A stretch of 64,000 bases of DNA, from positions 62,001-126,000 of the forward strand of contig NZ_SMNA01000011.1 of assembly GCF_004353825.1 (NCBI RefSeq), in the 5' to 3' direction. The notes under the pieces are model-generated. The model was given only the letters and a program-made list of their open reading frames with translations, made no database searches and was not told the origin of the DNA. A program made the translations under genes and the position numbers. Below are positions 38,109-59,473 of this stretch, piece by piece (position 1 is the first letter of the stretch; each line of letters opens with the position of its first letter). The stretch comes from Occultella glacieicola (GTDB lineage Bacteria; Actinomycetota; Actinomycetes; Actinomycetales; Beutenbergiaceae).

Positions 38109-38123
38109 GCTTACTTCGCATTC

Positions 38124-38140
38124 TGTGGAGCTAAGGGGAA
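38124..38140 (-). other. tRNA-Ala 3'-end fragment, putative att core of a genomic island
   Basis: The minus strand reads TTCCCCTTAGCTCCACA, matching the T-stem/acceptor end of actinobacterial tRNA-Ala; no 5' tRNA portion is present. Confidence 0.75.
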
Positions 38141-38930: not shown

Positions 38931-39290
38931 CCTGTCCTGGTGGAAGCAAGAGCGCATCACCCCGGCTGATCGACACGCTCGGTGACGAATTGCTTGAGGT
39001 GCTCCTCACCTTTGAAGTCCCTGGTGCAGTCCCACATTCGACTGCCAGACGTGCGCGAGCACCTTGCGCGGGATGGCCGAGTGATGCTGGCGGATGCGGT
39101 ACGGCGTACGTAGCCGCGGCTGGTGTTCTCCGCGCACGAGACCAGCGAGTGTCCGGGGCATTGAACGAGGGACGAACGTGGGTTGAGGTCTTGATCATCG
39201 AGCCCAAGCCCGGGTCGACTCTCGTGCGGAACTTGGCGAGACTGTCCGTCGACCGGGAGTCCATCTGCGCACACTCACCTGCCAAGAACT

Positions 39291-39314
39291 GTTGATTCCC
39301 GAATCAATCTTGAC
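39291..39314. promoter_or_regulatory. Conserved 24-bp box, copy 1
   Basis: GTTGATT-CCCGAA-TCAATCTTGAC upstream of FAD oxidoreductase 1. Confidence 0.8.
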
Positions 39315-39505: not shown

Positions 39506-40879
39506 ATGGCCCGCTCCGAATATCGGAGTTCGCTTCACGAGCCGAGACGTCAGATCCCGCTCGACGACGAGTCCGATGTTGTCGTGTGTGGAGGTGGACC
39601 AGCCGGCGTCGCCGCCGCACTAGGTGCTGCGCGGCTCGGCGCACGCACCACACTCGTCGAGTCTCAGGGCGCGCTAGGCGGTGTCTGGACCTCGGGCGCG
39701 TTGTCCTGGATCATCGATGCCGCTCTAAAGCCGGGAATCATGGCTGAGATCGTGGAAGCGCTGGAGGCAGCTGGTGCGGACACCCCCGTCGGCTTCCCTG
39801 ACTTCTCCTACGACGTCGAGAGAATGAAACTCGTGCTCGAGAGTATGTGCACAGCCGCCGGGATACGGATGCTATTCAACACCGATGTAGTCGGCGCTCG
39901 GGTCCACGAAGGCCGACTCCAGGCAATCATCACTGAGTCGAAGAGTGGCCGCATTGCCTTCTCCGCGTCGACATTCGTCGACTGCACGGGCGACGGCGAC
40001 GTCGCTGCACTGGCCGGTTGCCAGTTCGAGATCGGCCACCCTCAGACTGGGCAACTGCAACCCATGTCTCTCATGGCACTGGTCAGCGGCATCTCCGTCG
40101 ACGAGATGCACGACGTGATTATAGCCAACGACGTGGTTCGCGCAGATGAGGAGGACTTTTCACTGGCACGCAGGCGAAAGATCTCCAAGCACAATCTTCT
40201 TCGCGAGCTCGGAAGGGCTGGATTCGACCCGAGCTATACGGGTATCAGCCTCTTCAAGGTTCACGACGATGTCTTCGCGCTGATGGCGAACCACCAGTAC
40301 GACGTTCGGCCAGACGATGTCGGCGCGATTACCTCGGCAACGATCGAAGCGCGCCGTGAGATCAATCAGGTCGTCGAGGCCCTCCGTCTGTTGGGGGGGC
40401 GCTGGTCGGGTTTGCGCCTCATCAACACTGCTGCTCAAATAGGGGTACGTGAAGGGCGGCGCATCGCTGGGCGCTACCACATCACGCGAGACGACGTCAT
40501 GCGGGGCGCTGAGCACGAGGACGCTGTGGCGCGAGTCGCCTTCGGCTTCGACGTGCATGCCCTCACACGCGCGGAAGGCGGCTACCGCAGTCCGACAATG
40601 TCTGATGTCGAGACCCGCGCGCGGCCCTACGAGATCCCGCTTCGCGCCCTCATCGCGCGGGATGTCGATGGCCTGCTGATGGCCGGACGGTGCATCTCTG
40701 GCGACTTCTGGGCTCACTCGAGCTACCGCGTCACGGGCAATGCCGTTGCCACCGGCGAGGCGGCAGGGGTCGCGGCGGCGGTAACAAACTCATTGGGATG
40801 CACGGTCGCCCAGACCCCGTGGGCCGCGATCGCCAAGGCACTGCCATACCAAGCTGAACGGATTCTCGAACAGGCCTAA
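39506..40879 (+). CDS. FAD-dependent oxidoreductase (FAD_oxidored/PF12831-like)
   Basis: Motifs VVVCGGGPAG, FVDCTGDGD, GVREGRRI, YEIPLRAL and LLMAGRCIS. Confidence 0.9.
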   Translation: MARSEYRSSLHEPRRQIPLDDESDVVVCGGGPAGVAAALGAARLGARTTLVESQGALGGVWTSGALSWIIDAALKPGIMAEIVEALEAAGADTPVGFPDFSYDVERMKLVLESMCTAAGIRMLFNTDVVGARVHEGRLQAIITESKSGRIAFSASTFVDCTGDGDVAALAGCQFEIGHPQTGQLQPMSLMALVSGISVDEMHDVIIANDVVRADEEDFSLARRRKISKHNLLRELGRAGFDPSYTGISLFKVHDDVFALMANHQYDVRPDDVGAITSATIEARREINQVVEALRLLGGRWSGLRLINTAAQIGVREGRRIAGRYHITRDDVMRGAEHEDAVARVAFGFDVHALTRAEGGYRSPTMSDVETRARPYEIPLRALIARDVDGLLMAGRCISGDFWAHSSYRVTGNAVATGEAAGVAAAVTNSLGCTVAQTPWAAIAKALPYQAERILEQA

Positions 40880-40882
40880 TCC

Positions 40883-41492: not shown

Positions 41493-41696
41493 TCACTTCA
41501 CGTCAGACGCCCAGCACGAGCATGCTTCACCATCGGCAACAACGGCGGTGGGTGTGTTTGCGATGGGCGGCCAAGCACCCCAGATCGGGACTCGCGAGCC
41601 GACCTGCCCACTGCCGGAGAGCTGACCCGCGACACTGCCCGTGCGGGTGTTCTGTGTTCCGAAGTCTTCGACCCAGGCAATCGCGAACGGCGATGA

Positions 41697-41751
41697 GTTG
41701 ATTGCCCGATCAATCTTGACTCAACTGGATCGGAACAGTTGACTCAGCTGG
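41697..41751. promoter_or_regulatory. Conserved 24-bp box, copy 2, plus a downstream direct repeat
   Basis: GTTGATT-GCCCGA-TCAATCTTGAC (41697-41720); TTGACTCA(A/G)CTGG at 41716 and 41739. Confidence 0.8.
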
Positions 41752-43833: not shown

Positions 43834-44058
43834 CGGGCTCTCATTCTGGCTCGCAGGTGCGTCGCCGGGCAGCTCACCGAGGTCACCACGGGGCGACCGA
43901 ACTGCCGCCCAGCACCTACACAATTCTGCTCCGACAGAAGTCCCTCGGAACTCACCGCAGCGATCAGCACCAACCGCGGTCGGCAAGCGTATGCCGGTCA
44001 TCGGTCCGTGTTGACGCGCCCTCCTAGACCGCTCCGCACACAAGATTCGGGAGTACCC

Positions 44059-45684
44059 ATGCAGCACCCATCCTTCGACCGACGCACTTTCCTCCTGGGA
44101 GCGGGCGGAGCCCTCACTCTCGCAGCCTTGCCAAGTTGCTCCACCGGCGGCACTGGTTCCGAAGCTCCGACGACTGACAACAGTGGCGTCGAGCTACCCT
44201 CCTACATCCCCTCGACGGGTGTTAAGCCGGACCTTCAAGGTACGCCGGAGGGCGTGCCGGACGGGTTCTTCAACTACCCCGCCGATCAGCATCGTTCCGT
44301 CACCGAAACACCGGGGGCGGGTGAGTCGATCAGCGGGATGGCGATGATCTCCACGGCGGTCCCGCCGACCCGATCCGAGAACGCCTACTGGCGAGAGCTG
44401 GAGGACCGGCTCGGTGTATCGCTCGACCTGATGATGACCCCGTCGGCCGATTACGATCAGAAGTTGGCCACCGTCGTTGCAGGCGGCGACATCCCTGACA
44501 TGGTTCAGATTCGGGATGCCCCGGATCTTCCTCGACTGCTCGAGTCGCAGTTCCAAGACCTGTCCGAGTACCTCTCCGGCGATGCGATCCAGGACTACCC
44601 GAACCTGGCCACCTTGCCGCCTCTGACGTGGCGGGGGGCCATCTACAACGGTGGCATCTACGGCATCCCGAATCCACGGCAGGCGATCGGGAGTTACGTG
44701 TTCGTACGCCAGGACATCTTCGACTCGCTGGGGCTGTCGACCGAACCCGAGAACCTTGATGAGTTCCTCGAGACCTGTCGCGCGCTCACCAACGCCCAGG
44801 AGAACAGGTGGGCGATGGGCGATTCCGGATCGGCGGCTGCGCTCGTGATCATGGGCATGTTGTCCGGAGTGCCGAACGAATGGCGCAACGAGAACGGCTC
44901 GCTCACCCATAAGTACGAGACGGACGAGTTCGCGCGTTCGGTCGAATGGGTTACGCAGCTCTGGCAGGACGGCTTGATGCACCCGGATACGTTCGCGAGC
45001 TCCGACACGAGTGGTCAGTGGTTCCATGCGGGCCGAACCGGGATCTGGCTGACGGGCAACGGACACTGGAACAGCGCATTGAAGAACCATCCGACGTCAG
45101 AGCTCGGACTGATGACCCTGCCGAACTGGGATGGTGGCGGCCTCGCACCGTGGCGGCTCGGGTCAGGCTTCTTCTCGATCAATGCCTTCAAGAAGGCCGA
45201 ACCCGAGCGAATCAAGTTGCTGCTCCGGGTCTGCAACTGGCTCGCTGCTCCGTTCGGCAGTGAGGAGAACTACCTCCGCGCGTATGGGCTGGACGGCGTT
45301 CATCACACCGTCGACGCCGATGGGAATCCGACTCTCACCGAGTTGGGTCAGGCAGAGCTGCGGCTCCCGGTCAGTTATCTGGCGGCGCCGCCGACTCCGC
45401 TGTACACACCCGGGCGGCCCGACGACACGAGGGTCCAGCATGCCTATCAGTCCGAGGTGATTCCCGTGGGCGAGCCCAACCCGGTGATCGGTCTCTACTC
45501 GGCCACGGACGCCGACGACGGGGTCAGGCTGAAGCAGACCTTCGACGACGCCGTCAACGACATCATCACTGGCCGGGCGACCATCTCCACACTCACCGAG
45601 TCCGTGGACGCGTGGAAGCGCGATGGAGGCGACGCGATGAGGGCCGAGTACGAGGAACAACTCGCCGCCTACCCGATCGACTGA
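44059..45684 (+). CDS. Carbohydrate ABC transporter substrate-binding lipoprotein (Tat)
   Basis: DRRTFLL..LPSC signal; motifs YDQKLATVVAGGDIPD and NGGIYGIP. Confidence 0.9.
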   Translation: MQHPSFDRRTFLLGAGGALTLAALPSCSTGGTGSEAPTTDNSGVELPSYIPSTGVKPDLQGTPEGVPDGFFNYPADQHRSVTETPGAGESISGMAMISTAVPPTRSENAYWRELEDRLGVSLDLMMTPSADYDQKLATVVAGGDIPDMVQIRDAPDLPRLLESQFQDLSEYLSGDAIQDYPNLATLPPLTWRGAIYNGGIYGIPNPRQAIGSYVFVRQDIFDSLGLSTEPENLDEFLETCRALTNAQENRWAMGDSGSAAALVIMGMLSGVPNEWRNENGSLTHKYETDEFARSVEWVTQLWQDGLMHPDTFASSDTSGQWFHAGRTGIWLTGNGHWNSALKNHPTSELGLMTLPNWDGGGLAPWRLGSGFFSINAFKKAEPERIKLLLRVCNWLAAPFGSEENYLRAYGLDGVHHTVDADGNPTLTELGQAELRLPVSYLAAPPTPLYTPGRPDDTRVQHAYQSEVIPVGEPNPVIGLYSATDADDGVRLKQTFDDAVNDIITGRATISTLTESVDAWKRDGGDAMRAEYEEQLAAYPID

Positions 45685-45786
45685 CCAGGGAGGCAATGCG
45701 ATGAGACGCCCAGTGATGGGACACACTGACCTCGGCATCGAGATCTCGCAACCGAGGACGACGATACGGCCAACGCGGGGGTCACG

Positions 45787-46782
45787 ATGGTGATCGTCAA
45801 AACCGCTCCGAACGCGGGTGGACGAGAGCAGATGACGAGTTCCCGTGGCCCCAGTCCTTCAGAGCAACGCCGTGGACGGCGCCGTGGTCGCTGGCGGCGG
45901 GACAGGTTACTGCTGTTGTTGGGTCTGCCGGGGCTCGCGGTCGTAGTGCTGTTCAACTACGTTCCGCTTCTGGGGAATGTCATTGCCTTCAAGGACTATG
46001 TGCCGTATGTCGGGATTCTCGAGTCTCCCTGGGTGGGCTGGCAGAACTTCCAAGTCATATTCAATGGGGATCCGGAGTTTCTGACGGCGCTGTCGAACAC
46101 GTTGATCATCTCGCTCGTGCAGATTGCATTCGTGTTTCCGGTACCCATCGCGCTCGCACTGCTGCTGAACAGTCTGGTCAGTGAACGAATCAAGCGCGTG
46201 GTGCAGTCGGTTCTGTACCTGCCCCACTTCATGTCGTGGGTGGTCGTCGTCGCGATCTTCCAGCACATGCTCGGAAACGCTGGACTGTTGAACAGCTGGC
46301 TACGCTCGCAAGAATTGGTCACACTCCCGATTATCGGCAACCCGGACCTGTTCATCGGGCTCATCACGTCGCAGGTGATCTGGAAGGATGCCGGTTGGGG
46401 CACGATCATCTTCCTGGCGGCGTTGTCCAACATCGACGTGCAACTGTATGAGGCGGCCGCGGTCGACGGCGCCAGTAGGTTAAGGCAGCTGTGGCACGTC
46501 ACCCTGCCGGGAATCCGGAGTGTGATCTTCTTGATGCTGATCCTCAAGCTGGGTGACGTACTGACCGTCGGTTTCGAGCAGATCCTGCTGCAGCAGGGTC
46601 CGGTCGGACTGCATGCGTCAGAAGTGCTGGATACCTACGTGTATCGGAACGGCGTCCTGAGCGGCGACTGGGGCGTGGCCGCGGCCGTCGGCCTGGTGAA
46701 GGGCCTCGTCGGAGTGATGCTGGTTCTTGGCGCCAACAGGCTGGCCCACGTGTTCGGCGAACGAGGGGTCTACTCACGATGA
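45787..46782 (+). CDS. Carbohydrate ABC permease (LplB-like)
   Basis: Motifs SPWVGWQNF, YLPHFMSWV and LYEAAAVDGA; start uncertain. Confidence 0.92.
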   Translation: MVIVKTAPNAGGREQMTSSRGPSPSEQRRGRRRGRWRRDRLLLLLGLPGLAVVVLFNYVPLLGNVIAFKDYVPYVGILESPWVGWQNFQVIFNGDPEFLTALSNTLIISLVQIAFVFPVPIALALLLNSLVSERIKRVVQSVLYLPHFMSWVVVVAIFQHMLGNAGLLNSWLRSQELVTLPIIGNPDLFIGLITSQVIWKDAGWGTIIFLAALSNIDVQLYEAAAVDGASRLRQLWHVTLPGIRSVIFLMLILKLGDVLTVGFEQILLQQGPVGLHASEVLDTYVYRNGVLSGDWGVAAAVGLVKGLVGVMLVLGANRLAHVFGERGVYSR

Positions 46783-47699
46783 GAGCCAAGATCATTCCCG
46801 GGCGACCGTCGACGGCGCGAAGCACAACTGGTGCGATGGCCCCGCCAAGTCCGCTGATGCGTGGCTCCAAGGGACTCCTCCTGATGCTGTGCTGCGCCGT
46901 GGTCATCGTCCCATTCCTTTCGGTGGTCTCCACCAGCCTGGCAAGTCCGGCGGAGGTCACGGCCGCCGGCGGGTACGTGCTCTGGCCATCGCAGCCAAGC
47001 CTGGATGCCTACCGAGCGATCTTTGCCGGAGGGGTGGTCACTCGTGCCTTGCTGGTATCGGTCGGGATCACAGTGGTGGGCACCACACTCTCGCTGGCCT
47101 GCACGACCCTCTTGGCCTACTCCCTCAGCCGCCCGGGCTCGTTCGGTAGCAAACCCGTGCTGATGATCGTGCTGTTCACGCTGCTGTTCAGCCCGGGCAT
47201 GATCCCCATGTACCTGCTGATCAAGCAGCTTGGGTTGCTCGACTCCTACTGGTCGCTCATTTTGCCTGGCCTCATCAGCGGATTCCTCGTGATCATCATG
47301 CGCGGGTTCTTCCTTGACCTCCCCGGGGAACTGTTCGACGCAGCGCGTATCGACGGCGCCAATGAGGTGCAGACCTTGCTGCGTATCGTGGTGCCGCTGT
47401 CGAAGGCGGTGATGGCCGTGGTCGGCCTATTTATGGCTGTGGCCTATTGGAACGCCTTCTTCAGCGCATTGCTGTACATCAACGACACAGACAAGTGGCC
47501 GCTACAGCTCGTGCTGCGAAGTTACGTCGTGAACGATACCCCGGTCGGCGCAGAGGGCTTCGTTGGGGAGGTCGCACCTCCCCAACAATCCCTGCAGATG
47601 GCGATCCTCGTCGTCAGCCTGATCCCGATCGTCCTCGTCTACCCGTTCCTGCAACGCCATTTTGCCAAGGGCATGCTCATCGGCGCCGTCAAGGGGTGA
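46779..47699 (+). CDS. Carbohydrate ABC permease (LplC-like)
   Basis: Motifs ELFDAARIDGA and YPFLQRHFAKGMLIGAVKG. Confidence 0.92.
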   Translation: MRAKIIPGRPSTARSTTGAMAPPSPLMRGSKGLLLMLCCAVVIVPFLSVVSTSLASPAEVTAAGGYVLWPSQPSLDAYRAIFAGGVVTRALLVSVGITVVGTTLSLACTTLLAYSLSRPGSFGSKPVLMIVLFTLLFSPGMIPMYLLIKQLGLLDSYWSLILPGLISGFLVIIMRGFFLDLPGELFDAARIDGANEVQTLLRIVVPLSKAVMAVVGLFMAVAYWNAFFSALLYINDTDKWPLQLVLRSYVVNDTPVGAEGFVGEVAPPQQSLQMAILVVSLIPIVLVYPFLQRHFAKGMLIGAVKG

Positions 47700-47861: not shown

Positions 47862-50633
47862 TTGGAGTCAGACTCGAAGAACGGTCGGGAGGTCGCGCAG
47901 CATCCGCGGCTCTTCGGCAGCGACCTTTCTCATGTTCAGGAGCTGATCCTCGACGACGATCGTTCGCGCGGCTGGTACCGCAACGTCGAGCAGCAAGCCG
48001 AACAGCTCCTGTCCACGCCTGCTTGTGAGTACCTGATTCCCGATGGCAAGCGTCTACTGGACACGAGCAGGGAGGTCCTCCGGCGAACCTATTTGCTAGC
48101 GCTGGCACACCATGTCTCGCGTCGAAAGGAATTCGCCGACCGACTCTGGCTGGAATTGCTGACCGCGTCGCGATTCTCCAACTGGAACCCAAGCCACTTC
48201 CTCGACGTGGCGGAGATGGCTCACGCTTTTGCAGTCGGATACGACTGGCTGTACGAAGAGTGGGACGCCACCCAACGAGAGCACCTCGAGCACGCAATTG
48301 TGATGCACGCTCTGCGCCCTGGACTCCAGGCGTACAGGGAAGCTCATCGATGGACGGTCCGCACTAGCAATTGGAATCTTGTGTGCAACGCCGGCCTCCT
48401 GATGGCGGCTCTGGCCATCGCCGACGTGCACGGTAATCTCGCACAGGAGGTGATCGACGCGGCGATGGCGTCCATGGCCCGGGCGGTCGCTGTGTACGGC
48501 CCGGACGGCGCCTACCCCGAAGGCCTGGGCTACTGGAGCTACGGCACCCAGTACCTCGTCTTGGGCCTCGCCGCGTTCACGACTGCGACGGGCATGCCTG
48601 AGCAGCTCAGTTCCGTGCCAGGTCTCGACCGCACGGCGAGATTCGCCGTCCACGTCACTGGTCCCCTGGGGTTGGCGTTCAACTACTACGACGGCGCGGC
48701 GCGCGTCACGGTGCCGCCGGCTGGTTTCTGGCTCGCGCGCCGCTTCGACGATGGCTTGGCGGCCGGGTTGGCAGCCCAAGGCGCCGATGAGCTGCTCACG
48801 GACTGGGATCAGCTTCCGACCAGCCTGCTGTGGTACCGGCCGAGGTCAGAGGTCGATCCCGCAACAGCAGGCGAGCCACTCGACTCCTACTTCCGGGCAT
48901 CGGAGGTCGTCACCATGCGCAGCGCGTGGCAGCAGCGAACTGCGGTGTGGCTGGCAGGCAAGGCTGGCGACAACGCAACCCCGCACGGCGACCTAGACCT
49001 GGGTACCTTCGTACTCGATGCGCTGGGCACCCGTTGGCTGCACGACCTCGGGTGGGACAACTACAGCCTGCCGGGGTACTTCGACTTCACGGGAGGTCAG
49101 CGCTGGACCTACTACCGCAAGCGCACCGAGGGACACAACACGCTGGTGGCCAACCCAGACGCCACCGGGGGCCAGTCGTGCTCGACGACTCTTGGCGAGG
49201 CGGCCGGGACGGGAACCGGGGCTGTGATCGCACATCAGAGCAACGCTTCGGAGGCCTACGTCGTGCTCGACTTGACCAGTGCCGATCCCGCGTACCGCTC
49301 CTGGAAGCGTGGATGGCGCCTGTTCGACTTCCGCAGGCAGGTGCTCCTGCAGGACGAAGTCACCCTGCACGAAGCCGGCGAGGTCTGGTCGTTCCTTCAC
49401 ACGTCGGCGCAGATCGACATTGCCGACGACGGGCGAGGCGCCGTGCTCCGCGACGGGCCCAAGCGCCTAATCGTGCGACTGTCGGATCAGACTCCGGGTC
49501 TACTCGTGGAAATGGAAGCCACCCCGATGTGGACCTCGCCCGCCCCTCGGGGACAGAGCACCAACACGGCGATACGGAAACTCGCGCTACGGGTCTCAGT
49601 CGAGGGTCCGGTCACCCTCGTCGTCCAATTGTCACCAGTAACCGAGCACGAGCCAGTACCCCCACCGACCTCGGTGATGCCGCTTGCGAACTGGACTGTG
49701 AGCACCGAACCCGTCGCGCAACTGGAGCGCCTCGCCATCGACGGAGAAGACGTTCCCGGGTTCTCACCAGAAGTTTGGAGCTACGAGATCCCCGCATCGC
49801 AGATCGGACAAATCCAGGCGACTGCTCCCGCCGGCAGCACCGTCGACCAAATCCGCGAGCCCGGAGGCGATGTCGTGCTCGACGTCCACGCTCGAGGTGC
49901 CCGGACCGGCAGTTACCGACTCCGACGACTCCTCGATGACTCTCCACAGGCGATGACCTCGCCGATCTTCGCGAGAAGTGACGACGGGAACGTCGCCGCC
50001 AACGCTTTCGACGGGACGGCGGACTCGTTCTGGCGACCCGGTACCGCGGGCCCCGAGTGGATCGGATGCGATCTCGGTGTCGAGACCGGGTTGGGTGCCG
50101 TCCTGATCGCTTGGCACGAGGGCGCGCGCGCTTCAGTCCAGTTCGATGTCGAACTGGCCGGAGCGGAGGGGACGTGGCAGCAAGTCTGGACCGGATCGTC
50201 CTCTGGTACAACAACAGCGGCTCAACGGGTGACCTGGCCACCGCGGAAGGCTCGTCACGTACGCATCGTGCGGCGAGATGACGGGCCCGCCTCGCTGTTC
50301 GCCGTCACCTCGATGGAGCTGCCTGGGCGCCTCCCGCGTCAACCGTCGCAGCTGCGAAGCACTGACATCCACCTTTTGGTGCCGGCCTTGCGGGCGGGCT
50401 CCGCCCAACAAGCTTCCGTTTCGTTGAGATCGCCGCAGGGAGGAATCGTCCCAAGTTCTGACTACACCGTCGAACTCATCTCTTCCGATTCCTCGGTTCT
50501 CCAGATCGCTGGTGACCGCCTGGCCCCAATCTCGCCGGGCACCGTCGTCGTGACCGCCGTCGTCCGAACCAAGGAGCGACTCCTGCTTCATCACAGCGTG
50601 AATGTGCAGGTGCAACCGCCACAGCCTGCCTGA
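47862..50633 (+). CDS. Heparinase II/III-like lyase with F5/8 (discoidin) and Ig-like domains; no evident signal peptide
   Basis: TTG start after GGAGG; motifs HFLDVAEM, SNWNLVCN, YPEGLGYWSY and HGDLDLGTF; discoidin segment AFDG..SFW..EWI. Confidence 0.8.
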   Translation: MESDSKNGREVAQHPRLFGSDLSHVQELILDDDRSRGWYRNVEQQAEQLLSTPACEYLIPDGKRLLDTSREVLRRTYLLALAHHVSRRKEFADRLWLELLTASRFSNWNPSHFLDVAEMAHAFAVGYDWLYEEWDATQREHLEHAIVMHALRPGLQAYREAHRWTVRTSNWNLVCNAGLLMAALAIADVHGNLAQEVIDAAMASMARAVAVYGPDGAYPEGLGYWSYGTQYLVLGLAAFTTATGMPEQLSSVPGLDRTARFAVHVTGPLGLAFNYYDGAARVTVPPAGFWLARRFDDGLAAGLAAQGADELLTDWDQLPTSLLWYRPRSEVDPATAGEPLDSYFRASEVVTMRSAWQQRTAVWLAGKAGDNATPHGDLDLGTFVLDALGTRWLHDLGWDNYSLPGYFDFTGGQRWTYYRKRTEGHNTLVANPDATGGQSCSTTLGEAAGTGTGAVIAHQSNASEAYVVLDLTSADPAYRSWKRGWRLFDFRRQVLLQDEVTLHEAGEVWSFLHTSAQIDIADDGRGAVLRDGPKRLIVRLSDQTPGLLVEMEATPMWTSPAPRGQSTNTAIRKLALRVSVEGPVTLVVQLSPVTEHEPVPPPTSVMPLANWTVSTEPVAQLERLAIDGEDVPGFSPEVWSYEIPASQIGQIQATAPAGSTVDQIREPGGDVVLDVHARGARTGSYRLRRLLDDSPQAMTSPIFARSDDGNVAANAFDGTADSFWRPGTAGPEWIGCDLGVETGLGAVLIAWHEGARASVQFDVELAGAEGTWQQVWTGSSSGTTTAAQRVTWPPRKARHVRIVRRDDGPASLFAVTSMELPGRLPRQPSQLRSTDIHLLVPALRAGSAQQASVSLRSPQGGIVPSSDYTVELISSDSSVLQIAGDRLAPISPGTVVVTAVVRTKERLLLHHSVNVQVQPPQPA

Positions 50634-50677
50634 TGCCCTGAGCCAGGGGGTGTCTGGACCTCAAGTTGTTGAGCGCT

Positions 50678-51871
50678 TCAGTCCTGGGTCTGCGGCCACC
50701 CACGTTCGACCGCCCGATGCGGTTCGCGCAATCGTGAGATGGTGCCCATCTCATATTCGTCGATCGCGTGCGCAATCCACCCTGCGGACCGTGCGATACC
50801 AAACATGACCTCGCTGGCACCGTGCTCCATTGATGACGAGTCGGCAATCATGCCGAGCGCCAGGTACACGTTCGGGGGCGGGAGCCGGCGACTCTTGAGG
50901 AGCGCCAGCATCTCGAACGATCGCTGAAGTCTGGCGTCTTCTGTTGCGAGCGGCTTGAGCAGCTTCAGTAGGTGGCTGGCCCTAGCGTCCCCTTGCGGGT
51001 GCTGTGGGTGCCCGAATCCAGGTAGCCGTCCTTCGTCCCGGAGTCGTGCACTCAACACGAACATGGTCCCGTGTGTGTCTCCGAAGGTGCTCAGCATTGC
51101 TTCAACGGCAGTCGCGGACGCACCGAGTACGGCACTGCTGCCCACTCCTAGCCCTGCGGCTAGAACACCGTAGAGGTCGGCGTGTGCCGACGCTGCGATC
51201 TGTGCGGCGTACGTGGACGGCGACAACCCGTGATCCGCGAGCAACACAAGGGCGGCGTTCAGGACACGGACCTGCTCCTCGTTGGGCGTGATGGTCGAAA
51301 GGCGTGACCAGAGCATGGATGCCAAATCAACATCGATCGGTTCCGATCTCTGAGGCATTGCCTCCACCAGAGTCCGCAAGAGCGGTCCCGCAGCGTGCGC
51401 AGCCGATTGGATACTGGAGTCGGAGCGAAACGGATCCGCGGCAGTGACGGCGGCAAGCATGACACGGAGCCGGTCAGAGGAGATGGTTTCCTGCGGCAAC
51501 GACGTACCCACTCGCCGGGCCACGGCCACGGATTCCGCGTTGGCCACCCATCCGACGCTCTCCTCCCACCGCCCGGTCCAGAGGAAGTGCGCCACCGACT
51601 CGAAGGGTTGCTCAACGAGTTCAGACACAGGTCTGGCCCGGTAGTGGAGCATGTCGTCCTTCAACGTGCTCAAACGGGAGGTCTTGCCAAACTCGTTGAG
51701 CGAGGGCCGACGGCCTTCCTGCAGCAATCGGTCCACGTCCTCAGGGCGAAAGTAACTGATCCTGCCATCCCGCTGCCGTGGCAATGCTCCACGGCTGACA
51801 TAGGCGTAGATCGTCTCGCGCTTGACTCCCAGCCGTGCCGCGGCCTGTGTCGCTGTCAGCAAGTCATTCAT
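50678..51871 (-). CDS. HTH (excisionase-like)-citrate synthase-fold fusion, probable regulator/pseudoenzyme
   Basis: N-terminal LTATQAAARLGVKRETIYAYVSRG; CS motifs ADHGLSPST, PGFGH and ARSAGWIAH are present; LHGGA is replaced by VLGAS and PNVD by PNVY. Confidence 0.88.
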   Translation of the reverse strand: MNDLLTATQAAARLGVKRETIYAYVSRGALPRQRDGRISYFRPEDVDRLLQEGRRPSLNEFGKTSRLSTLKDDMLHYRARPVSELVEQPFESVAHFLWTGRWEESVGWVANAESVAVARRVGTSLPQETISSDRLRVMLAAVTAADPFRSDSSIQSAAHAAGPLLRTLVEAMPQRSEPIDVDLASMLWSRLSTITPNEEQVRVLNAALVLLADHGLSPSTYAAQIAASAHADLYGVLAAGLGVGSSAVLGASATAVEAMLSTFGDTHGTMFVLSARLRDEGRLPGFGHPQHPQGDARASHLLKLLKPLATEDARLQRSFEMLALLKSRRLPPPNVYLALGMIADSSSMEHGASEVMFGIARSAGWIAHAIDEYEMGTISRLREPHRAVERGWPQTQD

Positions 51872-51914
51872 CTGGGTCTCCTCTGACGTCCCGCACCCAA
51901 GATAGCGGACCATA

Positions 51915-51938
51915 GTTGATTCATGACTCAATCTTGAC
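51915..51938. promoter_or_regulatory. Conserved 24-bp box, copy 3
   Basis: GTTGATT-CATGAC-TCAATCTTGAC between the HTH-CS gene and the divergent FAD oxidoreductase 2. Confidence 0.82.
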
Positions 51939-51997
51939 GCGACTTGATCAACTCTGGTTCGCTCGCCGAGACCGAACAACACCGAAGAAGGAGCAAC

Positions 51998-53395
51998 GTG
52001 GCCGAGCAGTTGGCAACGAGTCATCACGACATCGTGATCGTCGGAGGCGGAGCAGCAGGAGTCGCCGCTGCGATCGCAGCGCGCCGCAGCGGCCTCGACA
52101 CCGTGCTAATCGAGGCAGGACCGTTCTTCGGCGGCGAGCTCGTCAGCGGATTGCCCATCGACGGCTGTCTCAACGCCCGGGGTGAGTGGATCGTTGGAGG
52201 CGTCGCACGACAGCTGTTCGACGCCGTCGAGTCGGCCGGGAGCTTTGCCCGGGCGATGTCCGACTACCGCCAGATGTGGGCGGTGTGCGTCGATCCGGAG
52301 ATGCTCAAGATGAGCATCATCGAGGCATTGGCCGAAGCCAGGGTCAACCCACGGCTGTACCTCACCAGCCAGGATGTGGTGGTACGCCGCAACCGCGTCG
52401 AGGGAATCATCGCGGTAGGAAAGGGGAAGCGCTACCTCATCACCGGAGACGTCTTCATCGACTGCACCGGCGACGGACAGTTGGCTGTCTCTGCGGGTGC
52501 GCCCTTCGAATTCGGCGGCCGAGCGGGCGAGCTGCAGCCGGTGTCACTGACCTACCGACTCACGAACGTCGACTACAGCAAGTACCTGGACTGGGTGGCC
52601 GCCGAACCGGACCTCTTCCTCCTCGCAGAGAACCCCGCCCTGGGCTACGCCGGCAAGCGCGAGGCAGCACGTGCGGCGCGAGATGGCGGGTTTCCATTCG
52701 TCGCCCTCGATGCGAACGGAACTGTCCTTGGGGACGCGATCGAGCGTGGCGCGATGGACCCCTGCACCGCGTTGTACTTGTGGCCGACATCGCCAGCGCG
52801 CAACGAAGTTGGCATGAACACCACGCGATTGTCAGGGGTCGATGGCACCAACCCCCAAGAACTGAGCGAATCCCTCTCCACCCTCACCGCCCAGATCAAC
52901 CGCTGCATCGATTTCTGCCAGAAGAACATTCCGGGCTTTGCGGATGCGCGCCTTGCCGGAATCGCACCCCGAGTTGGGGTCAGGGAGACCAGGCGCGTGG
53001 TCGGCGAGTACGTCCTCACTGAGGAAGACGTGGTCGAGGGCAAGAAGTCTGATCGCGGCGTCGCCAAGGGCGGTCACCACGTCGACATCCATGGCGAAGG
53101 CACCGCACAAGTTCGACGGGCAGTGAATGATGGCCGCTCGTACGACATTCCCTACGAGGCACTCGTGCCCAAGAATATCAAGAACGTGCTGATGGCCGGC
53201 CGGTGCCTCTCCTCTACTAGGGAGGCCAACGGCTCGGCTCGCGTCATGGGCACCTGCATGGCGACTGGAGAGGCCGTCGGCGTGGCCGCAGCAATGATGG
53301 TCGAGGCTGGTCTGCGTGATGTCCGCGAAGTCGATGTCGCGACGCTGCGCTCTCGACTCACGGCAGACGGCGCCGTCGTCGACGGCACCAACTGA
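51998..53395 (+). CDS. FAD-dependent oxidoreductase (FAD_oxidored/PF12831-like)
   Basis: RBS AAGGAG plus GTG; motifs IVIVGGGAAG, FIDCTGDG, GVRETRR, YDIPYEAL and LMAGRCLS. Confidence 0.9.
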   Translation: MAEQLATSHHDIVIVGGGAAGVAAAIAARRSGLDTVLIEAGPFFGGELVSGLPIDGCLNARGEWIVGGVARQLFDAVESAGSFARAMSDYRQMWAVCVDPEMLKMSIIEALAEARVNPRLYLTSQDVVVRRNRVEGIIAVGKGKRYLITGDVFIDCTGDGQLAVSAGAPFEFGGRAGELQPVSLTYRLTNVDYSKYLDWVAAEPDLFLLAENPALGYAGKREAARAARDGGFPFVALDANGTVLGDAIERGAMDPCTALYLWPTSPARNEVGMNTTRLSGVDGTNPQELSESLSTLTAQINRCIDFCQKNIPGFADARLAGIAPRVGVRETRRVVGEYVLTEEDVVEGKKSDRGVAKGGHHVDIHGEGTAQVRRAVNDGRSYDIPYEALVPKNIKNVLMAGRCLSSTREANGSARVMGTCMATGEAVGVAAAMMVEAGLRDVREVDVATLRSRLTADGAVVDGTN

Positions 53396-53568
53396 GCAAT
53401 CGTGAATCAACATGCCGATTTGACCACGGAATGGCAATGATCGCGCGTCGACCCGGAGTCTCTCGGCGCTCAGCACCCCAATGCTTCACACCCAGCGGAC
53501 ACCAGACGGTCGTACTGCCACCGGTAGTCGAAATTGCTGCGCCGGTTCTCGAAGGGCAGGTGATCTGA

Positions 53569-54585
53569 ATGCCGGCTGTGTTGTTTCCTGGCGACGCAGT
53601 GACGTTGGCCGTCGAGATGGAACCGCCAGAGCCGACACCCGGTGAAGTGCTCATCCGGCTCACCAAGTCCGGTGTGTGTGGCACGGATGTCCACTACTGG
53701 CGCGAGACTCCACAACAGCGCGGGCACAGACGCGACGTCGTGCCGGGACACGAGGCCGTCGGCGTGGTGGATTGCGTGGGACCGGGTGTCGTGGCATTCG
53801 GACCGGGTGATCGCGTCGTCGTCGGCATGCTCCATATCGGCTGCGGGCGATGCCGAGACTGTGCGTCCGGAAACTACTCCCATTGTCTCGACAAGCAGGT
53901 CTTGGGACGGACCCTGCATGGCTCGTACGGGCAGTACGTGTGCGTGCCCGACCGAGCGGTGTACCGACTGCCGGACGCCCTGACGGACAGCGTCGCGGTC
54001 ATGACCGCGTGCAACCTGTCCACCGCTCACTCCGCGGTGCGCAAGGCGGCCTTGTCTGCTGGCGGCAAGGTCGCGATCTTCGGACTGGGAGGGGTGGGGT
54101 TGTGCGCGCTGATGGCCGCCGCCACACACGGCGTCGAAGTCACCGCCATCGATCCCATCGCCGGTCGACGGGACATGGCAGCTTCGTTGGGCGCGACTCT
54201 CGTGAGCGACCCAGAAGACTTCCACGCCTCGCTGGCCGCCGGTCACACACGTGGCTACGACGCCACGATCGAGTGCAGTGGGCACCCAGGTGCACAAGCA
54301 GATTCGATTCGGGCACTGGTCCCCGGAGGGCGGTCCGTGGTCGTCGGCGGTGGAGGTCGGTTCACGTTCCGAGCCGAAGAACTGCTGGCACGTGAGTTGA
54401 CCCTGGTCGGCTCCTCGGTGTGCCCCGCCGATCTGTTCTACGACGTGCTGGACTTCGCTGCCACACACCATCGAGAACTTGAGGGGCTACTCGGGCCGAC
54501 GTTCGGCATCACCGACGCAGAGCAAGCCTTGCGACACTCTGCCGACGGGGGCATAGGCAAGCCGATCTTCGACTGGCCGCACTGA
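53569..54585 (+). CDS. Zn-dependent (MDR) alcohol/polyol dehydrogenase
   Basis: Motifs GVCGTDVH, PGHEAVG, CGRCRDC..C and IFGLGGVG. Confidence 0.92.
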   Translation: MPAVLFPGDAVTLAVEMEPPEPTPGEVLIRLTKSGVCGTDVHYWRETPQQRGHRRDVVPGHEAVGVVDCVGPGVVAFGPGDRVVVGMLHIGCGRCRDCASGNYSHCLDKQVLGRTLHGSYGQYVCVPDRAVYRLPDALTDSVAVMTACNLSTAHSAVRKAALSAGGKVAIFGLGGVGLCALMAAATHGVEVTAIDPIAGRRDMAASLGATLVSDPEDFHASLAAGHTRGYDATIECSGHPGAQADSIRALVPGGRSVVVGGGGRFTFRAEELLARELTLVGSSVCPADLFYDVLDFAATHHRELEGLLGPTFGITDAEQALRHSADGGIGKPIFDWPH

Positions 54586-55205: not shown

Positions 55206-56693
55206 TCAGTGCGCCACTGTGATGAACGTGCACGAGGCCGCTGGCAGGTGCAGGTCGCCGACGGATGTCGCGACGCGAGTCTCGTGCTCGAGAGCGTCCG
55301 TGCCGAGCGGTGACCGGTACGACTCGGCCATGGTGATAGTGCCTGCAGGGACATCGAGCGTTGCGCTCAGCGTCTGCTCACTGCGGTTGAGGATCGCGAT
55401 CTGTAGGACGCCGTCGGTGTTTCTGGTGGCCACGGCGTCCAGCGCTGGGACCTGTCGCGGAACGCTGCTGGGATCGACACGGACGGAGGGGTTGCGGCTG
55501 TGCAGGTCGGGGACCTCGACCTCGGGTGCGTCGATTTGTACGTCCATGCGAGTCCCGGTCAGGCGTTCCCGGTAGGTGCGGAAGATGGGAAACAGTGCTG
55601 ATCGCATCACGGTCCCATGACGGGCGTCGAGGACTGCGTTTCCGTTGACGAGGAATACGTAGTTCGCCATGGTGACGACATCCGCAGCGCGGAGCATGGC
55701 GTGGAACACACCAGCGACGAAGATGGCGTCGCTGCCCGTCCGCGGTGCCGTCCGATCCAGGCGAAAGGTGTCGTCTGCCTCCTGTCGGTAGTGTCGAATG
55801 TTCCACTCGTCGATGGCGATTCCGACTACCCGCGAGGCAGTTAGGTTGTGCTTGCGGACCAGTTGGCCCATCGCCTCGATCTGTGCCTCGAAGTGCAGGG
55901 GTGCCAGCATGACGGCTCGGCGTGCCTCGCTGCTGGCGGCAGGGTGCCCATCGCGATCGACTCTCGACCCGTAGAGGTGGAGGGAGAGGAGATCGATGCT
56001 GCTTCCTGCCACATCGAGGACCGTCGAATCCCAATCGGGGTCGGTGGCGCCGCTCGAGCCGACCCCGACGAGGCGGACGTCAGGCTGGTAGCGGCGGAAG
56101 AAGCGCGCCCAGCTGTCTAGCGTGTCTGCGTATTTCGCCGCCGTCATCCGCCCGGCCTCCCAGGCACCCCAGGTCTCATTGCCCAGGCCCCAGTACGCGA
56201 CGGGCCACGGATCGTGGCGCCCGTTGCGCATCCGCTCGAGGACGTCGCTCGTGGGCTGGGAGCCGGTGGTGTAGTCGAGCCATCGGAGCGCCTCGATCAT
56301 GGTGCCGGTGCCCATGTTGACGTTGATGTAGGAAGCTGCGCCCACGCGTTCGCACCAGTTGAGGAACTCGTGTGTTCCGAACTGGTGACTCTCGAGCTGG
56401 CCGCCGCCCCAGTGCCAGTTGGGTCGCACGGGGCGCCGCTCGAGGGGGCCGACGCCTTCCTCCCAGTGATAGCAGTCGGCGAAGCAGCCCCCGGGCCAGC
56501 GCACGACCGGTACCTGCAGCTCGGCCGCGGCAGCAATCACGTCCTCGCGGAGCCCGTCGTCGTCCATTAACCCCGGGTAGACGCAGTCTTCTACGTGCTC
56601 GAAGTACTGTCCGTAGATGTCGCGGTTGATCTCAATCGGTGCCGCGGGTTCCGCCACCGTGATCGTGCTGGTCAGAGTCCTGGCGTTGGTCAT
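55206..56693 (-). CDS. GH51 alpha-L-arabinofuranosidase-like hydrolase
   Basis: Motifs YGQYFEH, RWPGGCF, FGTHEF, WGLGNE and IAIDEWN. Confidence 0.9.
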   Translation of the reverse strand: MTNARTLTSTITVAEPAAPIEINRDIYGQYFEHVEDCVYPGLMDDDGLREDVIAAAAELQVPVVRWPGGCFADCYHWEEGVGPLERRPVRPNWHWGGGQLESHQFGTHEFLNWCERVGAASYINVNMGTGTMIEALRWLDYTTGSQPTSDVLERMRNGRHDPWPVAYWGLGNETWGAWEAGRMTAAKYADTLDSWARFFRRYQPDVRLVGVGSSGATDPDWDSTVLDVAGSSIDLLSLHLYGSRVDRDGHPAASSEARRAVMLAPLHFEAQIEAMGQLVRKHNLTASRVVGIAIDEWNIRHYRQEADDTFRLDRTAPRTGSDAIFVAGVFHAMLRAADVVTMANYVFLVNGNAVLDARHGTVMRSALFPIFRTYRERLTGTRMDVQIDAPEVEVPDLHSRNPSVRVDPSSVPRQVPALDAVATRNTDGVLQIAILNRSEQTLSATLDVPAGTITMAESYRSPLGTDALEHETRVATSVGDLHLPAASCTFITVAH

Positions 56694-56854
56694 GAGGTCC
56701 TTCTGGTTCACTTTGCGCAGCGGGTAGATGAAGGCTCCCGCGAAGCGAGAGGGACCTGCTCAAGACTCCGTCACTATGAGTCCGCCTCCCGCTGTCGCCG
56801 TACATCTAGGCGGTCTCAATCTGCTCGGCGGATTTGGGACGGCGGAACGCGCTG

Positions 56855-57184
56855 CTACTGCTTGAGCACGAGGTAGAGGTCATACTTGAACGCGGTCGCA
56901 TCGGGCCCGTCGATCCTCAGCCGCAGCCAGCCACCGAAGTGCGAGATCGGGACCCGGATGCCCTCGGCACCGGCTGGCAGCACGGCAGATGTCCCATGGG
57001 GCAGCCAGCGTCGTCCGTCTGCGGAGACCTCGACCTCCAGTGCGATCGGGTCGGGGCAGGGGACAACCGCATACAGGAACGCCGTGGCTTCCCCTGCCCA
57101 GGCGCACTCGTACGGCTCGGTGTGATGGGTGCCGGAGAAGTCGGCATGCCGCTCCAGGATCGCGGTGTGGCTCTCACGGATCAT
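56855..57184 (-). CDS. Small conserved-looking hypothetical protein
   Basis: ATGA coupling; motifs TEPYECAWAGEA, SADGRRW and HFGGWLRL. Confidence 0.75.
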   Translation of the reverse strand: MIRESHTAILERHADFSGTHHTEPYECAWAGEATAFLYAVVPCPDPIALEVEVSADGRRWLPHGTSAVLPAGAEGIRVPISHFGGWLRLRIDGPDATAFKYDLYLVLKQ

Positions 57185-58011
57185 CCGATAACTCCCGTCG
57201 ACAGCATCACCGAGTCCACGTAGAGGAAGGATCGGGAGTCGGTGTTCGCGTCCACCCAGAACCCGACGTTGAGCATCCCGCGCAGGTTGGGCCAGGCGGG
57301 CATAGTCAGCGGTTCGAGCGAGGCGCCGGACCAGACACGGTCGTTGCACTGGAACTCCAGGTAGCGCATCGTCGCCAGATCGAAGTCCACCCTCAGGTAG
57401 TGCCAGTTCTGTTTCGTGGCCAACTCGTTGTAACAGAGGTCCTGACGGCCGTCGGGGACGTCAGTCCACTGATCGTTTCCAAGGTGGAAGTGGGTCCTGG
57501 TCTCGGAGGAGATCGTCTGCGCGCGGCGGGGACTCGCCTTGTATTGCCATTGGTGCCGTGGCGGGCCGTCGCCGTCGGCGTTGAGGAAGCGCAGGTGCGG
57601 CATCACCCGGTGTTCGTCGTCCTGTAGGTCGAGGAAGATGCCAAAGCTGCGCACGTCACGGTCAGACAGCGTCATCGACGTCGCCTCCGGTTTGGAGGTG
57701 ACCCATCCCTCGACGCGGATCGGCTGCGCCCGCCGGAACGTCAGGCGCTTCAGGGCAACGGCGATGCTGTCGCGGCGGGCACGGGTGGCCAGTTTCATCG
57801 CGTAACTGCCATGCAGCGAGCCCGCGGTGCCGGTGTCCCACATGGTGAGGTTGCTGAGCATCGGGGGTCGGAAGTCGCGTTGCTCGGGAAGGATCGTGTC
57901 CAGCGAGCCCTCGTAGTTCCCGGTCAGCAGCGTCCAGCCCTGCAGCCCGCGGTCGAAGTCGTCGTCGAGCAGTATCTGGGATAGCGGCTCGAAGCCGTCG
58001 GCGGCGTTCAC
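57181..58011 (-). CDS. Hypothetical protein (DUF6772-like, tentative)
   Basis: GTGA coupling; motifs DDFDRGLQGW, PPMLSN, YAMKLATR and LCYNE..TKQNWHY. Confidence 0.7.
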   Translation of the reverse strand: MNAADGFEPLSQILLDDDFDRGLQGWTLLTGNYEGSLDTILPEQRDFRPPMLSNLTMWDTGTAGSLHGSYAMKLATRARRDSIAVALKRLTFRRAQPIRVEGWVTSKPEATSMTLSDRDVRSFGIFLDLQDDEHRVMPHLRFLNADGDGPPRHQWQYKASPRRAQTISSETRTHFHLGNDQWTDVPDGRQDLCYNELATKQNWHYLRVDFDLATMRYLEFQCNDRVWSGASLEPLTMPAWPNLRGMLNVGFWVDANTDSRSFLYVDSVMLSTGVIG

Positions 58012-58658
58012 AGCGGAAGCAGTACGGCTCGGCTGGGCGAGGCCTCTGCCTCGGCCAGGGGCAGAGGCAGGCAGATGAGCAGGTATTCCCCGGGGTCGAC
58101 GTGGTGCAGCACGAGGCCCTCCACAACGGTGACGTCGGCGCCCAGCAACGTGTGGTGTACCGCGCGATCCGTTGAGCCGAAAGGTTCGATGGAAGGTGCG
58201 TCGATCCCGATCAGGGCGACGCCGGCGGTGACCAGCCGCTCGGCCGCCGCTCCGGAGAGCGCGCGGAAGTGAGGGTCGAACGACTCGCCTGCGCGTGCTG
58301 GCGCCGGGGTTCGCAGGAGCAGTCGCTCCTGCGGCTGCGGCTGCAGGGCGTCGATCTCGGCGGCCTCGATTGTGCCGGTCGGCGCGGCGACCTCGGCCAC
58401 CCGGCAGCGGCCGATCAGCGGTGCCAGTGACTGCCCGCCAATCCGGGCGCCTCCGGCGAGGTGGTGGTAGGGGGCGTCGACGTGGGTGCCGGTGTGGCTG
58501 TTGAGCAACCAGCTGCTGTGAGCGGTCCGTTCGCCGGGTCGATGCCTGGAGTGCCAGCGCACCTCCGGCGGGAAACGATCCTCCCACGATGCCATTCCCG
58601 GCAGGATCGGTGCGGAGATGTCGATGATCGGCCCGAGCGACGTCGAGAGTGCACTCAT
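58008..58658 (-). CDS. Cyclase-family (kynurenine formamidase-like) metallohydrolase
   Basis: Motifs HTGTHVDAPYH, IGIDAPS and HHTLL..VVEGL. Confidence 0.88.
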   Translation of the reverse strand: MSALSTSLGPIIDISAPILPGMASWEDRFPPEVRWHSRHRPGERTAHSSWLLNSHTGTHVDAPYHHLAGGARIGGQSLAPLIGRCRVAEVAAPTGTIEAAEIDALQPQPQERLLLRTPAPARAGESFDPHFRALSGAAAERLVTAGVALIGIDAPSIEPFGSTDRAVHHTLLGADVTVVEGLVLHHVDPGEYLLICLPLPLAEAEASPSRAVLLPL

Positions 58659-59404
58659 CGCGCCAGCACCCCCCCGTCGACGGCGATCGCGTCGCCCGTC
58701 ATGAAGGAGGCGTCCGGGCCGCACAGCCAGGTAGCGAGTCGGGCGACCTCGTCGGGGTCGCCGAGCCGCCGCAGCGCCGCGTTGTCCAGATACGCCTGTT
58801 CCTTGACCGGCTCTTTGGTGATGACGCGCTCCACCATCGGTGTCCGAATGTGGCCAGGCAGGATCGCGTTGACCCGAATGCCGTGCTCGGCCTCTTCCAG
58901 CGCGGCGCAACGGGTGAGGCCGATGATCCCGTGCTTGGCAGCTACATAGGCGGCGGCACCTCGGACGCCGCGCACTCCGACGACCGATGAGGTATTGACA
59001 ATCGCGCCGCCGCCCGCGCGCCGCAGCAGCGGGATCTCGTGCTTCATCGACAGCCAGATGCCCTTGAGGTCGATGTCGATCGTCCGGTCCCAGTTCTCCT
59101 CGGTGCAGTCTGCGATAATCGCGCGCTGCTGCTCCACGCCGGCGCAGTTGACGGCGTGATCGAGCCGGCCCCAACGCTCTTCGATGACGGCGGCCAGGGC
59201 GCGCATGTCGTCTTCGCGTTGCACGGCACAGGGCACGAACAGCGCAGTCCCACCCGCCGATTCGATCTCGGCGGCGGTGCGAGCACCACCGTCGGCATCG
59301 ACGTCAGCGATCACCACCGCGGCGTCCCCGGCGGCGAAACGCAGTGCGACAGCCCGGCCGATACCGGACCCACCGCCCGTAACTAAAGCGACTCGTTGAC
59401 TCAT
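58655..59404 (-). CDS. SDR-family oxidoreductase
   Basis: Motifs TGGGSGIG, NCAG, YVAAKHG and IRVNAILPG. Confidence 0.93.
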   Translation of the reverse strand: MSQRVALVTGGGSGIGRAVALRFAAGDAAVVIADVDADGGARTAAEIESAGGTALFVPCAVQREDDMRALAAVIEERWGRLDHAVNCAGVEQQRAIIADCTEENWDRTIDIDLKGIWLSMKHEIPLLRRAGGGAIVNTSSVVGVRGVRGAAAYVAAKHGIIGLTRCAALEEAEHGIRVNAILPGHIRTPMVERVITKEPVKEQAYLDNAALRRLGDPDEVARLATWLCGPDASFMTGDAIAVDGGVLAR

Positions 59405-59413
59405 GTGGAGTAC

Positions 59414-59425
59414 TGTAGCGCTACA
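59414..59425. promoter_or_regulatory. LacI-type operator 1
   Basis: Perfect palindrome TGTAGCGCTACA between the SDR and lacI genes. Confidence 0.82.
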
Positions 59426-59473
59426 AGCGACCTGTGAAGCGCAGATCCGAGAATCGTGGGGTAAAACTGTCCG

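Follow-up and report, generated by a model that had tools for sequence, protein, structure and literature searches.

A predicted catalytically dead HTH–citrate synthase fusion and its candidate operators on a low-GC island of Occultella glacieicola encoding PL35-like lyases

In the ROK (NagC/XylR), MocR/GabR, NrtR/AraR and RpiR families, a helix-turn-helix (HTH) domain is joined to a metabolic-enzyme fold that senses a ligand for the neighbouring catabolic cluster. We know of no enzyme-fold one-component regulator that uses the citrate synthase (CS) fold. The protein described here differs from the above families both in its sensor fold and in the type of its HTH domain.

The Si-citrate and 2-methylcitrate synthases (type I dimeric; 3hwk, 1ixe, 2p2w) share with this protein the fold and the residues His238, His320, Arg329 and Arg401. 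However, it has Leu instead of His274, Tyr instead of Asp375 and Ser instead of Asn242, and carries an extra N-terminal HTH domain. The HTH_17–CS fusions, annotated as 'citrate synthase family protein', resemble it in architecture, with about 40% identity, in the divergent promoter, and in the operator core TCAA-NN-TTGA with flanking half-sites. Most of these fusions retain His274 and Asp375 and face a citrate synthase gene, whereas the branch considered here has lost both residues and also the Y-x-G arm at its C-terminus; its linker is shorter (55 against about 60–69), and it is associated with a predicted multi-site polysaccharide regulon.

In Caulobacter, the citrate synthase CitA has a catalysis-independent regulatory role (Berge et al. 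2020, PMC7083601). Unlike the fusion, CitA is catalytically active and exerts its effect on the cell cycle, and the part of that paper dealing with it describes no DNA-binding domain or operator (PMC7083601). The same source reports that E. coli gltA is complemented by CitB, not by CitC (PMC7083601). The 6-codon citC primer resembles the N-termini of the HTH–CS proteins, which suggests that CitC (CCNA_03758) may be HTH-fused. In Streptomyces, SCO5831 is presumably an HTH-fused citrate synthase. The passages on SCO5831/5832 in two papers treat them only as putative citrate synthases (PMC12323332, PMC9739823). A literature search, covering mainly openly accessible papers, yielded no paper on HTH–citrate synthase fusions as regulators.

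The protein and its active site

The gene is situated in a 64,000-nucleotide stretch of the O. glacieicola genome. This whole stretch is referred to below as the window, and coordinates are those of the window unless a contig is named. The protein has the following elements.

50678..51871, minus strand: HTH_17–citrate-synthase-fold protein of 397 aa, a single open frame; predicted catalytically dead one-component regulator
51713..51862, minus strand: HTH_17 DNA-binding domain (excisionase/MerR-like), residues 4–53 (Pfam E 1e-10)
50729..51679, minus strand: citrate-synthase body (Citrate_synt, PF00285), residues 65–381 (Pfam E 1e-45)
51125..51127, minus strand: Leu249 replacing the catalytic His274 (pig numbering), by alignment
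50864..50866, minus strand: Tyr336 replacing the catalytic Asp375 (pig numbering), by alignment
50726..51232, minus strand: span with the kept carboxylate-site residues His214, His288, Arg297, Arg361 and probably Arg382, by alignments

An initial sequence-only reading had proposed an excisionase-like HTH domain at the N-terminus, and the profiles agree: besides the HTH_17 match, the TIGR01764 excisionase domain scores 29.8 bits, just over the cut-off of 28.8. A stand-alone regulator of the BldC/excisionase type was ruled out, as the HTH_BldC model NF033787 has no match in the fusion (P0001) at E 0.001, with weak matches in its relatives, and a fusion of 397 aa is not a small single-domain protein.

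The same reading had noted the replacement of LHGGA by VLGAS and of PNVD by PNVY. This is confirmed by HMMER alignments of the fusion with three solved citrate/methylcitrate synthases (2p2w, 1iom, 3hwk), in which Leu249 (SAVLGAS) aligns with the His of the GP[LR]HGG motif and Tyr336 (PNVY) with the Asp of PNVD/PNLD; no compensating His or acid was found in these two columns. The ADHGLSPST and GFGH motifs and an arginine had been claimed to be retained, and indeed His214 of ADH (His238 in the pig numbering), His288 of GFGH (His320), Arg297 (Arg329) and Arg361 (Arg401) are all kept. What had been overlooked is Ser217 in the column of Asn242, the Asn of HGFNAST, a change common to the whole HTH–CS family. 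Further, the Arg directly following the GFGH motif in the synthases aligns with Pro in the fusion. Arg382 is probably the equivalent of Arg421', as judged by the profile alignment in a low-confidence tail (pLDDT 53–62), and the family Y-x-G tail is absent after it.

The AlphaFold model, with a 108-row alignment as input, has pLDDT of 92.6, and all its listed fold matches are citrate/methylcitrate synthases, with TM about 0.66; hence the fold is that of a citrate synthase. The fusion is far under the cut-off of every NCBIfam citrate synthase model (at best, 106 against 332 bits), as are two intact HTH–CS relatives, P0006 and P0040. Substitution of either His274 or Asp375 is known to cripple citrate synthase. 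By its alignments, the fusion is almost certainly dead as a citrate synthase. According to a description of a solved citrate synthase, His274 and Asp375 contact the acetyl group, and Arg329, Arg401, His320 and Arg421* contact oxaloacetate (10.1101/2024.11.06.622199). Mapping of the lost and kept residues onto these roles shows that the acetyl side is gone from the fusion and the acid side is retained.

Among 119 homologues from the first search, His is present at 274 in 109, and so is Asp at 375 (109/119). On the other hand, all four closest homologues (63–69% identity) have Leu or Val and Tyr in the two catalytic columns. The five sequences with this combination (P0001–P0005) form a clade with support 100/99 in a FastTree phylogeny of 54 of the 164 aligned rows, constructed with the motif columns left out. 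The clade has its own conserved pocket wall, GS[SG]A[VIL][LV]G and N[VA]Y; Tyr336 is common to all five members and one neighbour, P0229.

The dN/dS ratio is 0.061 in comparison with L001 (labelled Occultella aeris, 97% identity; Sd 50, Nd 10), and none of the 10 nonsynonymous differences is at the active site. In comparison with the metagenome locus L019 (68% identity, dS about 1.2) it is 0.198. Three neighbouring genes yield 0.11–0.20, and the regulator is within this range or lower. These ratios indicate purifying selection on the regulator gene. Since the Leu/Val and Tyr residues recur in the four closest homologues, the clade is supported at 100/99, and dN/dS is between 0.06 and 0.20, the catalytic loss is not decay. 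Frameshift or decay was ruled out by the same ratios, the open frame, and the substitutions common to five divergent sequences.

The clade is tiny, five representatives and L001. Its gene is present in two of 36 family genomes, and no further members were found in 401 class genomes. The search of 1.84 billion representatives produced only P0005 besides the own cluster of P0001; the plasmid search yielded no clade member (the best match being 39%), and the ESM Atlas search only the already-known HTH–CS family.

The island and the predicted operators

At 38 kb of the window, the GC content drops from about 72% to 63%. This is a 35-kb low-GC island at tRNA-Ala(GGC), from G000:C2:100123 to about 135231–135289, and thus extending beyond the window; at its right end there is an integrase-like frame, which is frameshifted. 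Transposase remnants are seen at 40880–41500 and at C2 about 129.7–130.2 kb, and a fragment of DUF5131 at 38418–38960. The GC3 of the regulator gene is lower than that of the host. The island encodes four PL35-like lyases, two PF12831 flavoproteins, ABC transporters, dehydrogenases, a GH51-like protein and a LacI-type regulator (59474–60499). The features closest to the regulator gene and the left border are listed below.

38123..38139, plus strand: att-like repeat bounding the island on the left, 17 bp of the tRNA-Ala 3' end
39506..40879, plus strand: PF12831 FAD-dependent oxidoreductase 1, predicted target; 72% identical to the divergent neighbour of the regulator gene in L019
41869..43833, plus strand: PL35-like polysaccharide lyase 1 (heparinase II/III-like), predicted target; matches 8khv (E 1e-64) and 9o3q (E 7e-50)
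44008..47699, plus strand: ABC solute-binding protein and two permeases; binding protein 51% to that of L019
47778..50633, plus strand: second PL35-like lyase, carrying an F5/8 module and transcribed convergently with the regulator gene, by domain match
51998..53395, plus strand: PF12831 FAD-dependent oxidoreductase 2, divergent from the regulator, predicted target, by domain match

The lyase at 41869 keeps the Asn/Tyr/His catalytic set of PL35, as counted manually on the alignment to solved lyases, and is 57% identical to the lyase beyond the window. The ABC transporter genes at 44008..47699 are probably co-transcribed with it. The substrates of PL35 enzymes are described as uronate-containing glycosaminoglycans, sometimes alginate (PMC12088678). 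In the window as well as in L019, PF12831 flavoproteins are encoded next to PL35-like lyases and ABC transporters. For the first of them (39506–40879), no solved relative was found beyond the FAD-binding motif; an FAD oxidoreductase is reported from a xanthan locus, with a putative function (10.64898/2026.04.20.719765).

It had been claimed that no companion citrate synthase or CoA-transferase gene is adjacent. This holds: the sole PF00285 match on the contig is the regulator gene itself, flanked by lyase, ABC-transporter and flavoprotein genes. There are eight PF00285 matches in the genome. An intact HTH–CS gene with a divergent CS gene is situated at G000:C18:130909–133323, and ordinary citrate synthases are also encoded elsewhere. 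Two further CS-fold genes lack the HTH domain and have altered catalytic motifs (G000:C19:298970–299935 and C18:288044–288634), the second apparently resembling citryl-CoA lyases.

The predicted regulatory elements are as follows.

51915..51952, plus strand: predicted operator in the regulator/PF12831 divergent promoter, a 24-bp core (51915–51938) and a fourth half-site to 51952
39291..39314, plus strand: predicted operator before the first PF12831 flavoprotein gene, by repeat search and matrix scan
41697..41720, plus strand: predicted operator before the PL35-like lyase/ABC transporter/lyase run; box also present before the orthologous lyase in L019
C2:132990–133013, minus strand: fourth predicted operator, past the window, before another lyase (lyase 4), by matrix scan
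51909..51914, minus strand: candidate −10 box of the regulator gene, TATGGT, immediately following the operator; tentative, from the sequence

The sequence-only reading had mentioned a 24-bp box, and the box is real, with copies at 39291, 41697 and 51915. Genome-wide (5.3 Mb), the pattern TTGA-N8-TCAA-NN-TTGAC occurs four times, in all four cases inside the island. The bare palindrome TTGA-N8-TCAA was rejected as evidence, as it occurs at the chance level (10 seen, 6 expected). With the weight matrix built from the four island sites and two L019 sites, the four boxes score 41–44 bits, and the next place 24. A partial half-box-like stretch before the Zn-dehydrogenase gene, at 53403–53425 (GAATCAAC...TTGACC), scores less than 14 bits in the same scan.

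In L019, the box is situated between the regulator and flavoprotein genes (the latter 72% to flavoprotein 1) and, again, before the lyase ortholog (59%); the binding-protein ortholog (51%) is encoded 3' of the flavoprotein. The box is the conserved element of the alignment of the window and L019 intergenic regions. Out of 41 related genomes, two, G000 (four copies) and G014 (three copies), have the exact pattern, and both have the regulator gene; the pattern is absent in the other 39, including genomes of the same genus with only the intact paralogue. This co-occurrence is not independent, as the same island carries both the box and the gene, and the independent support comes from L019 only, one 21-kb locus. 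With these observations in hand, it is highly probable that the regulator binds the box. The minus-strand operon at 55206–59503 (SDR, a cyclase-like frame, DUF6772, a small protein and the GH51-like protein) is divergent from the LacI gene; since there is no box upstream of it, it probably belongs to a separate LacI regulon.

A hexamer TATCGT is found at or near the place of the candidate −10 box in L001 and L019. The scan with the sigma-70 consensus yielded no promoters in 50500–53700, hence the −35/−10 reading is tentative; six independent sites of the clade are followed only by weak T-x4-T hexamers.

The gene could also be a decaying extra copy of an intact HTH–CS regulator, its boxes being either relics or sites read by the C18 paralogue. 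The mobile nature of the island, with its transposase and integrase remnants, and the GC3 below that of the host are consistent with this. However, the open frame, the dN/dS of 0.06–0.20 and the substitutions shared by five divergent sequences largely refute it, and the box is retained at orthologous genes over dS of about 1.2, so that we regard this explanation as hardly credible. Two points count against the regulator reading more generally: the intact C18 paralogue could in principle read the boxes, and the island has its own LacI.

The fusion family and repeated loss of catalysis

A functional regulator would most likely switch the genes for the breakdown of acidic polysaccharides through the box, and the box itself has counterparts in the wider family. 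The pattern TCAA-NN-TTGA-Nx-TCAA is found upstream in 80 of 103 HTH–CS loci (a redundant set of mostly intact members), compared to 98 of 2060 random segments. Judging from the shared core, the island box is a variant of the family operator. The spacer is N3 in 38 cases, N4 in 15, N7 in 15, N5 in three and N6 in three, and six cases scored as N2 are read as N7 by eye. Exclusivity of the N6 spacing to the dead clade was rejected, as the N6 half-pair is present in betaproteobacterial intact members and in L107; it is exclusive only within the set of 41 genomes. A dependence of the spacer length on the linker length is seen as a weak trend only, the medians for N3–N7 being 61, 60, 60, 55 and 69, with n=3 at N6.

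A −10-like hexamer often lies 16–18 bp beyond the last half-site of intact members, in 8/36 cases with N3 and 18/41 with N4, the controls yielding 0–3. Given this spacing, the last half-site is probably the −35 box. As the operator core is also found beside members with His274 and Asp375, the DNA binding probably predates the catalytic loss. Indeed, these counts suggest that DNA binding is a trait of the family, with or without the catalytic residues.

Of the 88 loci with enough upstream sequence, 63 have a citrate synthase gene as the divergent partner. The regulator's divergent partner in the window, L001 and L019 is the PF12831 gene, not a citrate synthase. In family f8, the divergent partner often is a protein of the homocitrate/isopropylmalate-synthase family (below the cut-offs). 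There, intact HTH–CS genes face a DRE-TIM gene over the same operator (L164:4955–6178, L165:7731–8975 and, at their upstream ends, several of L133–L161), that is, a non-homologous condensing enzyme takes the place of the citrate synthase partner; this DRE-TIM protein may resemble Re-citrate synthases.

To describe the loss of catalysis across the family, we took the 150 listed representatives of a 50% clustering and set aside P0001 and P0005, leaving 148. Arg329 is retained in all 148, Arg401 in 147 and His238 in 143. Both His274 and Asp375 are kept in 111, and 37 representatives are without one or both. Position 375 is Glu in fifteen of the 148; one row is truncated. Glu at this position is also found in 53 of 56 partner synthases without the HTH domain, e.g. 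L101:8206–9372. As a control, all these 56 (67 frames minus nine mis-sorted family members and two copies of one divergent gene) keep His274, Asn242 and Asp or Glu at 375. At the level of genomic loci intact members dominate, with His in 121 and Asp in 116 of 126. On these counts, the dead HTH–CS members are diverse, not abundant. A larger clade that has lost Asp is supported at 89/84 and contains one intact member.

The near-invariance of Arg329, Arg401 and His238 bears on the possibility that the CS body is just a scaffold for dimerisation or partner binding, e.g. in a heterodimer with another CS-fold protein, with no small-molecule ligand. The eight PF00285 matches in the genome, including the intact HTH–CS paralogue, provide possible partners, and the Y-x-G arm is absent in all five clade members. 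However, a scaffold would not need the carboxylate-site residues, which are retained in the 148 representatives despite the free loss of the catalytic pair, and this explanation is quite improbable.

The residues at 375 are informative about another possibility, a bifunctional protein combining DNA binding with new chemistry, in which Tyr336 and His288 would turn over a pathway acid or a CoA ester. The presence of Tyr336 in the whole clade and P0229 fits this suggestion, and the CS-fold citryl-CoA lyases are a precedent for a change of the reaction within the fold. Still, in the wider group without Asp position 375 is occupied by Y, G, H, F, Q, R or A, i.e. there is no common catalytic substitute, the Arg following GFGH is replaced by Pro, and no CoA-handling gene is among the box targets. 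We consider new chemistry very improbable.

In f8, one of the 30 loci listed has the K/G combination and the other 29 have His274 with Asp or Glu; a second K/G copy is present in genome G583. The two dead K/G copies of this genome (L162, L163), both belonging to the larger clade without Asp, are each the last gene of an operon. One operon encodes TcuA (above the cut-off), MmgE/PrpD and a CoA-transferase, and the other, aconitase-family subunits, a CitE-like lyase and TctA. TTGAT-N7-ATCAA precedes one copy, and the other is without a box. The K/G copies are a second candidate rewired branch, linked to tricarballylate/aconitate-like catabolism.

Proposed function and ligand

We propose that the fusion is a one-component regulator of island genes that senses a free carboxylic acid, with the binding, the ligand and the sign all inferred; as a whole, this reading is reasonably likely. 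The CS body would dimerise, as suggested by the fold, and place two HTH domains on the TTGA/TCAA half-sites. A free carboxylic acid would bind in the former oxaloacetate pocket via the retained His and Arg residues, and Leu249 and Tyr336 would close or reshape the acetyl subsite. The open–closed hinge motion of the fold may then move the HTH domains and induce expression of the lyase, the transporter and the flavoproteins, while the regulator would repress its own gene. The sign at the target promoters is ambiguous, since the last half-site resembles a −35 hexamer; activation is slightly favoured because of the poor −10 boxes, derepression being nearly as likely.

The sequence-only reading had held that the CS fold was repurposed to sense an organic or sugar acid or an acyl-CoA from the island pathway. 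In its favour, the protein is almost certainly dead as a citrate synthase, is under purifying selection and is linked to a box before island genes, but the regulatory role is not a consequence of the catalytic loss. Rather, the comparison with the family indicates that the dead branch arose by later loss of catalysis and rewiring to a polysaccharide regulon.

That the regulator senses a small carboxylate is likely in view of the kept pocket residues. An acyl-CoA is less probable than a free acid, since the acetyl subsite is now occupied by Leu and Tyr, the Arg after GFGH has become Pro, and there is no CoA enzyme among the box targets. The ligand would most likely be a 2-oxo or dicarboxylic sugar acid from the processing of the PL35-like lyase products, perhaps via the PF12831 enzymes, although we assign such a pathway sugar acid slightly less than even confidence.

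An alternative is that the same regulator responds to oxaloacetate, citrate or another TCA acid as a central metabolite, so that the use of polysaccharides would follow the carbon status instead of a pathway product. The retained residues are exactly those of the oxaloacetate site, and a TCA-type ligand may have been ancestral, given that intact members face CS (63/88 loci) or a condensing enzyme of the DRE-TIM type. On the other hand, the clade has a specifically reshaped, conserved pocket alongside the change of the regulon, and dedicated regulators on mobile catabolic islands more often sense their own substrate. Thus a TCA acid seems unlikely, and the pathway sugar acid is favoured over it by context only.

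If the sugar-acid reading is true, the protein would represent the first use of the CS fold for the control of a polysaccharide-utilisation regulon, and the identity of its ligand would hint at the reaction of the PF12831 flavoproteins, providing a lead on their role beside PL35-like lyases. It would exemplify the transition from an enzyme via a pseudoenzyme to a rewired regulon, and might serve as a scaffold for biosensors of organic or sugar acids. The new elements are the dead branch, rewired from a citrate synthase partner to a predicted four-site polysaccharide-catabolic regulon, and the recurrent loss of catalytic residues, seen in 37 of 148 representatives against an invariant Arg329. 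The dead branch is the cleanest test case, as it cannot be explained as an enzyme, has left its partner behind, and has four predicted operators. More tentatively, the CS fold may be the sensor of a so far undescribed multi-phylum family of transcription factors in which catalysis has been repeatedly dropped and the pocket retuned, to tricarboxylates in one branch and to uronate-derived sugar acids here. Many proteins with an HTH domain annotated as 'citrate synthase' are probably gene switches, and this annotation is misleading for metabolic models.
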